A stretch of 62,790 nt of DNA from Alphaproteobacteria bacterium. Its GTDB lineage: Bacteria; Pseudomonadota; Alphaproteobacteria; JABAAW01. Of the stretch, positions 8,457 through 49,436 are shown in pieces. The stretch spans positions 62,028-124,817 of the forward strand of contig JABACB010000002.1 of NCBI GenBank assembly GCA_014237925.1, given 5' to 3'. A program made the position numbers and the translations under genes. The notes below the pieces were generated by a model. It did not search any database, was not told the DNA's origin, and worked only from the letters and a program-made list of their open reading frames with translations. Position 1 is the stretch's first letter. Every line of letters begins with the position of its first letter.

Positions 8457-8603
8457 GGCGGAGAGTGTAGCAGAGTTTGCTCATAGAACGGGCTTTTTAC
8501 GGACAAAAAGGCGCTATGTCTGTTGCGCGCGCGCGCGATAGCGCTTTCTACGCACGAGTGCCTCGTTCCCGTTTGCGAAATCGGCGAGGAGATTAAAAAA
8601 AAT

Positions 8604-43102: not shown

Positions 43103-43819
43103 ATGCAAGGATGGTTTTACGAAAAGGGGGGGAAGTCGCAGCTGGTGATCGCAACGGGCAACCGAGGAAAATTTGTCGAGATCGCAGACTTGCTGAAGCC
43201 CTTTGTTTCCGACATCCGCCCTTGGAACGCGTTCGGCGTAGCGAAGGTGGAGGAGACGGGCGCAACCTACGCCGAGAACGCTCTGATCAAAGCGCGTGCT
43301 GCCTTCCAGCGTAGCGGACGGGCAAGGGGATTTGCCACTCTTGCCGACGATTCGGGGTTCGAGGTCGAAGCGCTGGACGGGAAACCAGGCTTGCTTTCGG
43401 CAAGATGGGCGGAGGGGCAAGATCAGGAGCAGGAGCAGGAGCAGGATCAGGAGCAGGAGCAGGGGGGGAATAATGGCACGCGCGACTTTGCGCGTGCTAT
43501 CGAGCGCGTTCGATGTGAGATGCTAGCGCGCTCGTATAAAGAATCGTCTGCACGGTTCGTTTGTGCGCTTGCGCTTGTGCGCAGCGACGGTGCGGAGCGT
43601 GTTGTCGAGGGCGAGGTGCAGGGAAGGGTTGTTTTTCCACCGCGCGGCGGGCGGGGATTTGGCTATGACCCTATTTTCGTGCCTTTCGTTACGGGGGACG
43701 ACCGAACTTTCGGCGAGATGGAGCGCGAAGAGAAGCAATGTATTAGTCATCGTGCGCAGGCTTTTCGTCGTTTGGGCGAAGATTGTTTTGCGCAAGAGAT
43801 CCGTCAGGAGATTGGCTAA
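43103..43819 (+). CDS. rdgB: Non-canonical purine NTP pyrophosphatase with a (QE)n insert
   Basis: ATGNRGK, ENALIKA, ADDSG, GFGYDP, SHRAQA. Confidence 0.96.
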   Translation: MQGWFYEKGGKSQLVIATGNRGKFVEIADLLKPFVSDIRPWNAFGVAKVEETGATYAENALIKARAAFQRSGRARGFATLADDSGFEVEALDGKPGLLSARWAEGQDQEQEQEQDQEQEQGGNNGTRDFARAIERVRCEMLARSYKESSARFVCALALVRSDGAERVVEGEVQGRVVFPPRGGRGFGYDPIFVPFVTGDDRTFGEMEREEKQCISHRAQAFRRLGEDCFAQEIRQEIG

Positions 43820-44003
43820 AAAATCTGCCGAAAGATTTGCCGAAAACCACGCGCTCGCTACGGGATTTTGCGCGAGGAAACTTCCCGCATCCCCCCGCAC
43901 TCTCCATGCGTGCGCGACAACCTCTTTCCGTCCTTAACAATCCCTTTGCTTGTTCGCAGTCTCTGTTTTCGCAAACCCATACGCAGCTCCCCAAAGCAAA
44001 ACG

Positions 44004-45257
44004 ATGCCTACTTCTTCTTCCACCTGCGCGCGCGACCTTTCGCTCTACATCCACTTCCCCTTCTGCGAACGGAAATGCCCCTATTGCGACTTCAACTCGC
44101 ACGAACGCACCACCATTCCCGAAGACGCCTATGTCGACGCTGTCTTGTGGCGTTTGCAAAACCTCAGCCGCGACCGAACGATACAAAGCGGTAAGTGCCT
44201 TGTGCGCTCGATCTTCTTCGGCGGCGGCACGCCCTCGCTCCTCTCGCCACACGCCGTAGGCAATATCCTCGAAGGCGCGGACAAAAACTTTCGCATCGCG
44301 CAAGACTGCGAAATCACCCTGGAGGCGAATCCTTCCAGCGCGGAAAAAAACAAGTTCGCCGAATGGAAAAAGGCGGGTGTCAATCGTGTCTCGCTCGGCG
44401 TGCAGTCCTTCGACGACAACGCGTTGCGTTTCTTGGGAAGACTCCACGACGCACGACAGGCGCGCGCCGCGCTCGAGCGAGCCGCCAGCCTGTTTGCGCG
44501 CTTCTCCTTCGACCTCATCACAGCTCTGCCACAACAAAGCGACGAGGCGGTCAAGCGCGAGCTCGCTTGCGCCGCACGCTTTGGCGCAGAGCATCTTTGC
44601 GTCTATCAACTGACGATCGAAAAAGCGACCGCCTTCTATCGTGCCGAAGCCAACGGCTTGCTCACCTTGCCCTCGCAGGCGCACGCAGCGCGCCTCTATC
44701 GGCTTGTCGAACAAGAGCTGGCGGCGCAAGGCTACGCCAGCTACGAAATCTCCAGCCACGCCCTCGGCATCGCGTCGCAATCGCGTCACAACCTCGTCTA
44801 TTGGCGGAGCGGCGACTGGCTGGGAATAGGACCAGGGGCGCACGGACGCATCACGCGCTCAAAGCGAAGCATCGCAACTCGAATCGCAACTTTGGAGACG
44901 CGCGACCCCGACCGATGGCTCAAGCAAGCGCAGGCAAGAGACGGACGCATCGAAAAACGCATCCTCCTCTCGCCAGAAGAGGCAGCGCAAGAGCGCGTGA
45001 TGATGGGACTGCGCCTCAAGGAAGGCGTGCCGCTCGCGTTGTTCGACGAAACGAAACAAGCGCGCATCGTCGATCTGTGCAAGGCGGGCTATTGTGAAAA
45101 AACTTTGCTACGACTAAACTTGACGACAGAAGGAAGTTTGCGACTCGATTCGATCGTAGCCTGTCTGCTCGCCGACAGCGCGTCTCTCTACCAAGAGACG
45201 CCGACAGTCGAAAAGGCTGACAGCTTCAAGCCGAACGAACGCGAGAACGAACATTGA
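44004..45257 (+). CDS. hemW: Radical SAM heme chaperone (start 44004 or TTG 43950)
   Basis: YIHFPFCERKCPYCDFNS, FFGGGTPS, NRVSLGVQS, HNLVYW. Confidence 0.95.
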   Translation: MPTSSSTCARDLSLYIHFPFCERKCPYCDFNSHERTTIPEDAYVDAVLWRLQNLSRDRTIQSGKCLVRSIFFGGGTPSLLSPHAVGNILEGADKNFRIAQDCEITLEANPSSAEKNKFAEWKKAGVNRVSLGVQSFDDNALRFLGRLHDARQARAALERAASLFARFSFDLITALPQQSDEAVKRELACAARFGAEHLCVYQLTIEKATAFYRAEANGLLTLPSQAHAARLYRLVEQELAAQGYASYEISSHALGIASQSRHNLVYWRSGDWLGIGPGAHGRITRSKRSIATRIATLETRDPDRWLKQAQARDGRIEKRILLSPEEAAQERVMMGLRLKEGVPLALFDETKQARIVDLCKAGYCEKTLLRLNLTTEGSLRLDSIVACLLADSASLYQETPTVEKADSFKPNERENEH

Positions 45258-47182: not shown

Positions 47183-48208
47183 TTAGCGCAAAACATCCTT
47201 GTTCGATCGCGCCGAGGATTGGGGATGCGATGGCGCAAGGAATTGAGATTGAGATTGAGGATGGGCAGCGCGGTGCTGTTCGACAAGGTGGGCCATATCG
47301 ACCTCCGTATAACGCTGCGTGGCTTTAAGCGAGCTGTGTCCGAGAAGTTTTTGGATAGAGCGCAAGTCTCCCCCCTCCTCCATCAAATGCGTCGCAAAGG
47401 AATGGCGTAGCGCGTGCGGGGTTGCGCTCTGCGGCAAGCCTTGCTGTTCGCGCAAAATCTTCATGCGTTTTTGCACGACGCGCGGATGCAGCCTTTCGCC
47501 GCGAGCTCCGCGAAAGAAGGGTTGCTCGGAAGTTCGCTCGGAAACATGCGTCTTGGTATCGGGACGCTGCTCGCGGTAGTCTTTCAAGGCATCGCACACG
47601 CGCGGCAAGACAGGCACGAGGCGCACCTTGTCGCCTTTGCCGTGGATGCGCAAGCGACGGGGTGTTTCTTTTGTCATGCGTAAGATCTCCTCGTCGTCGA
47701 GCGCGAGGGCTTCGGAGATACGCAGTCCCGCGCCGTAGAGCAGCGTCAGCAGCGCGACATCGCGCGCCTTGACCCAGTCTTGCTGTTCGGCGCACATTCC
47801 CGCTGCTACGATCAGCGCGTGCGTGCGCTCTTGCGAAAGGGGATAGGGCGGCGGCAACTGATGCGGAGGGCGGCGCACGCGAAGGGCGGCGGAGCAGGAG
47901 ATGTTGTAGAGGGTTTGTAGCCTGCGCACAAAGCCTTTTAAAGCCGAAAGTGCGCGAGCAACCGATTGCGCTTGCAAACCCTGTGCGCGCAGTTGCGCCA
48001 TCCACCCGCGCAAGTCTCGCTCTTCGATCTCCGACCATGCCGCCAAGGGGATAGAGCTACCACGGTGGTTTGTGAGAAAACGATCGAAAGCAAGAAGGTC
48101 GCGGCGATAGGCTGAGAGCGTGTGCGGGCTGAGGCGTCGCTCGCTTTCGAGATGGCGACAATAGTCTTCGAGGGCGACGGAAAAGGGAGGGGGCGATGCT
48201 TGGGACAC
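47183..48208 (-). CDS. xerC: Tyrosine recombinase XerC
   Basis: LLYGAGLRISE, GKGDK, TPHALRHSFATHL, LLGH, TQRYT; no integron-integrase insert seen. Confidence 0.9.
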   Translation of the reverse strand: MSQASPPPFSVALEDYCRHLESERRLSPHTLSAYRRDLLAFDRFLTNHRGSSIPLAAWSEIEERDLRGWMAQLRAQGLQAQSVARALSALKGFVRRLQTLYNISCSAALRVRRPPHQLPPPYPLSQERTHALIVAAGMCAEQQDWVKARDVALLTLLYGAGLRISEALALDDEEILRMTKETPRRLRIHGKGDKVRLVPVLPRVCDALKDYREQRPDTKTHVSERTSEQPFFRGARGERLHPRVVQKRMKILREQQGLPQSATPHALRHSFATHLMEEGGDLRSIQKLLGHSSLKATQRYTEVDMAHLVEQHRAAHPQSQSQFLAPSHPQSSARSNKDVLR

Positions 48209-48248: not shown

Positions 48249-48353
48249 TAACGATAGAAACGCAAGATAGCAAGTCTCGTGCGTGTTTGTTGCGTGAGCG
48301 CTATCCAAAAAGCACGAGCGCTAGCGTAGCAGATATATCATGCCGCAACGGAC
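48249..48353. repeat. Direct repeat copy 1 (~105 bp, internally palindromic)
   Basis: Core 48249-48326 matches 49012-49093 at 75/78 nt plus one 4-bp indel; the degenerate tail aligns without gaps. Confidence 0.93.
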
Positions 48354-48473: not shown

Positions 48474-48923
48474 TCATTTCAGGTTGCATTCGTAGAAGAA
48501 GGCATCATCAAGTGATTTGTTTTTTAACTTCATCTTTTTTATTGCGTCTGATGCCATTTTCCAGCAAATTTCCGAGTTTGGATAGACATTAATCTCCTCC
48601 TCTAGCAACACTTTTTCAGCATCTGATTTTGTCGGATCTTCCCAATAAAACTTGGAAAGCACGTGTGGCCTATTAGATTCTCTGATATACCCTTCTTCTA
48701 CTTTATCCTTGCTCATTTGTCCCAATTGGCATTTTACGAGCAGAAACAAAACGATTGCGAAGGGAATCCCGCCAACGACAAAGGTTAAGATGAATTTTGA
48801 CCTGTTTGAAAGAGGCGGTTGGTCTTTGGTAACATCTTTTAGATAATCGGCAATAGATTCTCCGTCTCTTCTTTCCCTAATTTCAGGTTTGGCTTTTTGC
48901 TCGTCTTGATCTTGGTTGCTCAT
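48474..48923 (-). CDS. Low-GC orphan single-pass membrane protein (149 aa)
   Basis: MSNQDQDEQK..FILTFVVGGIPFAIVLFLLVKC..FFYECNLK. Hand counts give 32-37% GC in sampled lines. Confidence 0.8.
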   Translation of the reverse strand: MSNQDQDEQKAKPEIRERRDGESIADYLKDVTKDQPPLSNRSKFILTFVVGGIPFAIVLFLLVKCQLGQMSKDKVEEGYIRESNRPHVLSKFYWEDPTKSDAEKVLLEEEINVYPNSEICWKMASDAIKKMKLKNKSLDDAFFYECNLK

Positions 48924-49011
48924 TATCAAGTCCTTTTTGTTTGGGTTTGATGTTGGGATTGGGGCTGACACTCCAAAGGAGTTGCGAATTCTCGCATGAA
49001 ATTCTCTTTTA

Positions 49012-49120
49012 TAACGATGGAAACGCAAGATAGCAAGTCTCGTGCGTGTTTGTTGCGCGAGCGCGTGCTATCCAAAAAGCACGAGCGCGAGCGCAACATA
49101 TACGCCGTGTGGCAATTGAC
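49012..49120. repeat. Direct repeat copy 2 (~109 bp)
   Basis: See copy 1. Contains GATAGCA/TGCTATC and CTCGTGC/GCACGAG inverted pairs. Confidence 0.93.
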
Positions 49121-49129
49121 ACTGTTGTA

Positions 49130-49436
49130 GCGCGTTTCTGCGAAACGCGCCTGGAGCAGGAAGAGGCTGCGCGCTTGCGCGCAGTTTTTTGCGGGAAAAC
49201 TTCGTCCCCCCTCAGCCCCTCCGCGTGCGCTAGCGCACAGTTTTTTTGCGGGGGAACTTCGTCCCCCCACACCCCCCCGCGTGCGCTAGCGCACGCGACG
49301 CGCGACCGCCTTTTTGTCGCCCAAAGTCCCGTTCCTTGTCTTCTTCCTTGTCCTCCCCCCCGCGCGCGCTGACGCACGCGACGCGCGACCCGCCTTTTTG
49401 TCGCCCAAAGTCCCGTTCCTTGTCTTCTTCCTTGTC
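49130..49436. repeat. Hairpin array: 9-bp stem, 56-bp unit x2, ~83-bp unit x2, 20-bp perfect palindrome
   Basis: GCGCGTTTC-TGC-GAAACGCGC (49130-49150); GGGGGA-ACTTCG-TCCCCC; CGCGTGCGCTAGCGCACGCG (49278-49297). Confidence 0.92.

Follow-up and report, generated by a model that had tools for sequence, protein, structure and literature searches.

The window, i.e. the whole stretch of 62,790 nt analysed here, carries two neighbouring genes on the + strand: rdgB (43103..43819), encoding a Ham1-family NTP pyrophosphatase (Pfam PF01725, E = 1.8e-52), and hemW (44004..45257), encoding a radical-SAM haem chaperone (PF04055, PF06969). Identity between the encoded HemW and the HemW proteins of named Alphaproteobacteria does not exceed 46%. 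The genome is represented by an 86%-complete assembly of 409 contigs. Between the two genes lies a C-rich spacer of 184 nt (43820..44003), in which neither a promoter-like site (sigma-70-type hexamers) nor a terminator-like site was found. The best Rfam match in the region 43700-44100 scored 17.2 bits (E = 0.24) where the gathering score is 36.7, and across the whole window tRNAs alone passed the gathering score. Within rdgB, an in-frame tandem array of GGAGCA occupies positions 43413-43463.

The strand composition changes abruptly at this junction. The top strand of rdgB is G+T-rich with a GC skew of +0.25, while the skew is -0.31 in the spacer and -0.28 in the first 250 nt of hemW. In 60-nt bins it stays between -0.54 and -0.39 until about 44120, and the first ~300-400 nt of hemW are C-rich on the coding strand. 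The change point was located at 43815..43816, at the rdgB stop codon; base 43815 is the best change point at windows of 300, 500 and 800 nt as well as a local maximum of cumulative G-C. With J = -0.47 the jump belongs to the most extreme 0.7% of window positions. Since rdgB and hemW are both encoded on the + strand, this is a switch in composition and not a change of gene strand. The flip reported here in the initial annotation is real. Four-fold sites near the rdgB 3' end (last 450 nt) have G.37, T.30, C.21 and A.12, compared with G.31, T.16, C.39 and A.14 in the genome as a whole, and in hemW 49% of these sites are C.

An eroded repeat arm between rdgB and hemW

The initial annotation had read 50 bases within the spacer (43866-43915) as a degenerate copy of a hairpin unit found at 49.2 kb in the window. 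An nhmmer profile of this unit, here called module A, was built from 18 other genomic copies with the candidate excluded. It matched the spacer at 43850..43917 on the + strand with 18.2 bits (genome-wide E = 0.0025), and the alignment shows the same four blocks, in the same order, that had been named in support of the kinship. The match was set against shuffled and C-rich spacers, the comparison on which the initial annotation had staked its claim. When the spacer was shuffled 5000 times with its dinucleotide composition preserved, this score was never reached (maximum 5.8), nor did any of 87 C-rich control spacers attain it (maximum 4.0); among all 284 real control spacers there was a single one, itself a weak family member. 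The copy is, however, longer than had been claimed, since module A is followed by a decayed module R at 43910..43954 (+ strand, nhmmer 16.4 bits; 0/5000 shuffles, maximum 11.8). This order of modules is the one seen at the reference locus, where module A at 49182-49294 precedes module R at 49297-49339 and 49381-49423, and it recurs on two other contigs.

Structurally the candidate is no longer intact. Its DNA fold (z = -1.7) is no better than that of shuffled sequences, compared with z = -3.6 for the second module A copy at 49.2 kb, which folds as two hairpins, and both the G6/C6 hairpin and the distal palindrome have been lost. The retained profile match together with the lost stems identifies the candidate as a decayed member by descent. 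In a blastn-short search of the spacer against the genome no link to the 49.2-kb unit was obtained at E < 1; this method is blind to the kinship, which made the profile necessary. That the likeness of 43866-43915 to the unit merely reflects the C-rich, GC-rich composition of the spacer is hardly credible: the missing blastn-short match and a profile score of just 18 bits would agree with such a chance origin, but the shuffle and C-rich spacer controls, the adjoining module R in matching order and an orientation towards the switch equal to that of intact arms (see below) speak against it. The ~105-nt segment 43850-43954 is genuinely the eroded outer arm (module A ahead of module R) of a palindromic, non-coding mosaic repeat.

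A dispersed palindromic repeat and the composition switches

The 56-bp unit is not peculiar to the 49.2-kb locus but belongs to a dispersed family. The reference locus, in a spacer flanked by priA and an orphan ORF on the - strand, consists of two tandem copies of module A (49182..49294, + strand; TRF period 56; nhmmer 60.0 and 44.6 bits), followed by two copies of module R within 49297..49423 (+ strand; TRF period 84; nhmmer 21.2 and 17.8 bits). The core of the family, TTTGCGGGGGAACTTCGTCCCCCCACACCCCCCC plus a variable palindrome, was detected by blastn-short on many contigs and often at contig ends. The consensus of module R is a hairpin, GCGACAA..TTGTCGC, followed by TAAAAATCCCGTC, and 19 genome matches were obtained for it at E <= 0.01, including both copies at 49.3-49.4 kb. 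In intact copies a T-run lies before the hairpin, unlike the arrangement of GC hairpin and then T-run in an intrinsic terminator. Module A occurs in ~30 copies in this assembly and in 275 arms at 200 loci in the closed genome of a relative (G003), which was analysed whole. BLAST searches with an 83-nt consensus gave 7-27 matches in each of four genomes of the same genus and one weak match in a fifth, so that 5 of 6 genomes of the genus were matched, compared with single marginal matches in 2 of 34 genomes from other families. The repeat is restricted to a single clade within a genus of uncultured alphaproteobacteria that have small genomes.

The arrangement of the arms is highly regular. In G003, the arm order '-+' was found in 46 loci and '+-' never within a locus. 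From these 46 pairs and 134 single arms a simple rule was derived: the C-rich arm strand points away from the composition switch, with the 5' end of the arm at the switch. The remnant between rdgB and hemW obeys this rule: the change point is base 43815, and the + arm starts 35 nt further to the right. Full elements are palindromes of 400-600 bp formed by '-+' inverted arm pairs astride the switch, some with low-GC foreign DNA between the arms. In G003, 31 arm pairs have 1-8 kb of intervening DNA with a mean GC content of 46.7% (genome 55%) and without skew, and the centres of the elements look like entry points for foreign DNA in this genome. A one-sided footprint of each arm had been considered as well; it is largely explained by these arm pairs split by low-GC cargo, to which many seemingly single arms belong.

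Being intergenic, made of short palindromes, present in high copy number and arranged in clusters of alternating orientation, the repeat resembles REP/BIME elements. REP/BIME sequences and REPINs, known from enterobacteria and pseudomonads, are likewise short GC-rich imperfect palindromes of high copy number and strictly intergenic location (Nunvar et al. 2010, PMC2817692). Both form mosaics of alternating orientation and are enriched after gene 3' ends, and GTAG-like motifs were seen by eye before the hairpins in neighbouring modules here. The differences are that the sequence of this repeat is unrelated, that its full elements measure 400-600 bp, have an invariant '-+' order of arms and in some cases carry foreign DNA, and that the Y1/RAYT transposase (PF01797) was not found in this genome, G002, G004 or the closed G003; a control search detected it in 6 of 14 reference genomes.

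Correia elements and NIMEs of Neisseria and RIMEs of rhizobia are miniature inverted-repeat elements, non-autonomous, inverted-repeat-bounded, intergenic and mosaic. The present repeat appears to share all four of these properties; unlike for those families, a partner transposase was not identified and no clear target-site duplication was seen at the G003 insert described below. Flank footprints are not known for Correia elements, NIMEs or RIMEs. A full-text literature search found no description of kb-scale mutation footprints in the flanks of REP/BIME or other bacterial repeats.

The initial annotation had proposed that matches to the repeat profile should overlap with skew jumps. By permutation test they do: in this assembly all 15 evaluable repeat loci coincide with a downward GC-skew jump, on whichever strand the arm lies, with a locus mean of -0.35 compared with a mean absolute jump of 0.15 in spacers >= 100 nt (P about 1e-4). 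The AT jumps at these loci are mostly upward. Abrupt switches are predominantly downward (52 vs 7 upward), and the resulting sawtooth profiles reach into conserved genes such as ilvD. In G003, the jump is negative at 193 of 199 loci with a mean of -0.45, and the AT jump is positive in 89%. This genome has 150 strong downward switches and 23 upward ones; 121 of the 150 have an arm at most 500 nt away, compared with 12% of random positions. Repeats and downward switches are thus very strongly associated; genomes this closely related do not count as independent evidence.

At each switch, the strand that points at the site in its 5'->3' direction has an excess of G+T and a deficit of C+A, and this holds on both sides. 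The enrichment reaches over ~0.5-2 kb and decays over about 2 kb. Within G003 genes, in-gene skew at arm junctions was +0.17 to +0.26 on the left and -0.09 to -0.32 on the right in all four orientation classes, and junctions without arms were flat. For this comparison only genes with homology-validated strand were used; gene calls were otherwise from a crude custom finder. Convergent genes with G-rich coding strands as a source of the switches were ruled out by a mean coding-strand skew of only +0.02 and by the likeness of the four junction classes. A universal 5'-to-3' gradient within genes was ruled out too, the average gene profile ranging just from -0.02 to +0.06. A first BLAST list had suggested that arm strand tracks the replication arm; the full match list ruled this out, and arm strand in G003 shows no bias by replication arm.

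The rdgB-hemW junction in related genomes

The synteny of rdgB and hemW is kept in G001-G004 and G006, and the orthologous spacer measures ~0-35 nt in G001, G002 and G004. The junction in G003 carries a 411-bp insert with two inverted arms (L094:1681-2091) and shows the switch, from +0.53 to -0.46. This insert is palindromic: its 49-nt inverted ends, 92% complementary to each other, enclose inverted A arms. It is absent from G004, and the high complementarity of its ends suggests that it is young. Comparison with the empty site of G004 revealed no clear target-site duplication, and the candidate in the present genome has neither end. In G004 there is no element in the spacer of about 35 nt, and a razor-sharp switch from +0.57 to -0.62 lies across the hemW start; the skew profile of the junction goes from +0.5 to -0.45. 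Neither is there an element in G002, with a spacer of about 0 nt, and its switch goes from +0.42 to -0.36. The present genome, with a decayed arm in a 184-nt spacer, goes from +0.26 to -0.28, a footprint weaker than those of G003 and G004. G001 and G006 have neither an element in the spacer nor a switch; in G001 the 3 kb profiled about rdgB-hemW are G+T-rich throughout.

The hemW genes of G003 and G004 are 89.5% identical, and all other pairs among this genome, G002, G003 and G004 share about 77%. Given this distance between carriers, the switch is common to three deep lineages. Among the four-fold sites in the final 450 nt of rdgB, G003 has G.52, T.41, C.03 and A.03, with G004 much alike, so that G+T amounts to 93% and 91%, respectively, at the 3' end of the gene. 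At the 5' end of hemW the two genomes have 77-80% C+A (C.47-.53, A.24-.33). The first hemW codons of G004, ATGTCCGCTCCCCCCACCCCCGCGCGCGAC, are weakly like the C-tract of module A (5.6 bits, E = 0.013-0.017 with a few kb searched); they may be the trace of a lost arm or plain C-rich coding sequence.

The junction provides a natural experiment: the element is intact in G003, decayed in this genome and missing from G004 and G002, and the footprint is found in all four. Its persistence over all three states separates marker from cause. The initial annotation had concluded that a shared cis element marks where the asymmetry originates. As a marker of switches the element holds up well genome-wide, in view of the G003 figures given above; that the asymmetry originates from it at rdgB/hemW is unsupported, as G004 and G002 are free of the element with a switch as strong or stronger, and the integrity of the arms does not affect footprint strength. 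The copy in this genome is accordingly more likely a marker than the cause.

The same picture was obtained from other junctions. Of the G003 arm junctions, 88 are syntenic with this genome, which has kept the arm in 5 and lacks it in 83. Where the arm is missing here, skew drops correlate with those of G003 (r = 0.76) and are about half as large (0.25 vs 0.53). Outward skew in G003 does not differ between arms with an intact hairpin (-0.289) and a lost one (-0.296; P = 0.67) and is equal for all arms above 12 bits. The numbers of arms and switches were 0 and 0 in the 239 kb sampled of G006, 1 and 2 in the 400 kb sampled of G001, ~30 and 52 in this genome, and 275 and 150 in G003. The one arm in the G001 sample is not at a switch.

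Possible origins of the footprint and further elements

Differences in local mutation rate or spectrum within bacterial genomes are usually ascribed to replication and transcription. In this clade one repeat family flags sites at which neutral positions of conserved genes are ~90% G+T on one strand, whatever the direction of the gene and across species. The footprint has mirror polarity, decays over 1-2 kb, is independent of gene orientation and is visible at neutral sites. Judged by its polarity and length scale, we lean slightly towards persistent break or nick sites that have been colonised by repeats, with a footprint left by deamination of the resected strand. According to this scheme, the DNA in such a spacer would be interrupted recurrently by a break or nick, 5'->3' resection would proceed from the interruption and leave the 3'-ended strands single-stranded, and cytosine and adenine would deaminate on these single strands (C->T, A->G), which would build up a mutational footprint over long times. 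The repeats would be secondary colonisers that were captured, inserted or tolerated at interruption sites, and the copy between rdgB and hemW would be an inert fossil at a persistent hot spot rather than the source of the asymmetry.

In its polarity and length scale the footprint matches one known from human meiosis. Around meiotic double-strand break hotspots, strand-asymmetric mutagenesis occurs within about 2 kb (Hinch et al. 2023, Science, PMC7615360), and C and A are lost on the strand exposed by resection, the forward strand on the left and the reverse strand on the right (PMC7615360). Those breaks are programmed meiotic breaks made by SPO11/PRDM9 and the mutations are de novo events, whereas the present case is a bacterium. 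Unlike at the human hotspots, the bacterial footprint is near compositional saturation at neutral sites and conserved across species. It is conceivable, but we consider it rather doubtful, that each chromosome has 100-200 fixed break or nick sites that are conserved between species and hot-spot-like, with the repeats as their products and not their cause. Under that hot-spot reading, and just as tentatively, the sites might write kb-scale mirror footprints into essential genes and admit hairpin repeats and foreign genes. If break and resection indeed apply, sites of recurrent DNA damage in uncultured bacteria could be mapped from sequence only, a bacterial counterpart to meiotic hot-spot footprints would exist, and changes in codon usage and protein ends near certain spacers would be accounted for.

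The gene complement bears on this mechanism in several ways. The resection enzyme AddA is present in all five genomes (this genome and G001-G004). Two UDG-family genes encode uracil-DNA glycosylases, and simple persistence of uracil therefore needs a further assumption. Endonuclease V was not found in the five genomes and is also missing from half of the control genomes; given this and the presence of UDG, loss of uracil repair was rejected as an explanation. SbcD was not found in the five genomes, one of them closed, which makes the classic hairpin-cleavage route unavailable and removes SbcCD as the source of breaks. An excess of C>T and A>G on the strand pointing at the site would be expected; polarised substitutions between G003 and G004 on the rdgB side were 19 vs 9 in this direction and those in hemW 10 vs 10, both being small counts polarised with distant outgroups.

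The strongest competing explanation, which we hold possible though clearly less probable than colonised break sites, is that the palindromic elements themselves cause the breaks, through cruciform or hairpin processing or cleavage by a partner nuclease, and that the footprints outlive the elements. G004 and G002 would then have lost their copies recently, and the copy between rdgB and hemW would be a decaying former driver. The figures from G003 agree with this, as 81% of the strong downward switches lie <= 500 nt from an arm and armless junctions are flat. Further, switch density scales with arm number over four genomes (0, 1, ~30 and 275 arms with 0, 2, 52 and 150 switches), the sampled G006 and G001 being nearly devoid of both; the junctions without arms here show the reduced drop (0.25 against 0.53), and the decayed arm at rdgB/hemW goes with a footprint weaker than that of G003. 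But G004 and G002 would each have had to lose the element independently, recently and cleanly while the footprint stayed as strong as before, and footprint strength depends neither on arm score above 12 bits nor on hairpin integrity. Moreover, the young-looking copy of G003 sits in a switch common to three deep lineages, and neither SbcD nor a Y1/RAYT nuclease was found.

Two other accounts would dispense with breaks. One takes the skew as selected: C-rich, G-poor RNA past the switch would provide Rho-loading sites against read-through or antisense transcription, the repeats being ordinary spacer hairpins found where transcription units end. On both strands, RNA transcribed across the switch does change from G-rich to C-rich, and arms are found at 59 of 142 convergent vs 55 of 610 tandem junctions. 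We nevertheless consider this account improbable, in view of four-fold sites that are 91-93% G+T for hundreds of bases, a reach of about 2 kb, a matched A/T asymmetry that it does not predict, and the same polarity at junctions of the divergent and tandem classes, whose C-rich side is formed by 5' coding sequence of an essential gene. The other account sees an ordinary feature of replication (terminus or origin) or of transcription, to which the repeat is coincidental. Replication skew is an excess of G over C and of T over A on one strand that is usually ascribed to single-strand deamination. The switches have the same nucleotide signature, and G+T on one strand is what a leading or a non-template strand would carry. 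Replication skew, however, has one origin and one terminus and is constant over megabases, whereas here there are 50-150 sawteeth of 1-2 kb with terminus-like polarity. The closed 1.9-Mb genome of G003 has 150 switches, while its cumulative skew passes through just one minimum and one maximum, ~0.95 Mb apart, and arm strand is unbiased by replication arm. As to transcription, rdgB and hemW are co-oriented, the four junction classes share one polarity, and coding-strand skew is close to zero on average. This last account is very improbable.

Several other elements were observed. The strongest switch of the window (J = -0.76 near 8525) has a copy of module R on the - strand at 8482-8513 (25.8 bits). 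The 49-kb spacer contains two more dispersed hairpin families. Family X (GTTGCGCGAGCGCGTGCT..AGCACGAGCGCGAGCGCAAC), at 49050-49097 and 48278-48353, has about 30 or more copies and also occurs at several switches without module A; family Y (GCGCGTTTCTGCGAAACGCGC), at 49124-49149, has about 10 copies. The orphan ORF of this region (48474-49028, - strand) is low in GC (about 40%), has no Pfam match and lies between two repeat copies of ~100 nt; it adjoins a gene for a XerC/D-type recombinase (integrase) at 47183-48208 on the - strand. On another contig (C333:86700-87450), the full repeat found at the 3' end of ilvD has an AT-rich gene inserted next to it, and an HNH-like CxxC...CxxCH motif is present in this gene. 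Short 11-15-nt tandem arrays are very common in the window (102 TRF rows), often right at switches.
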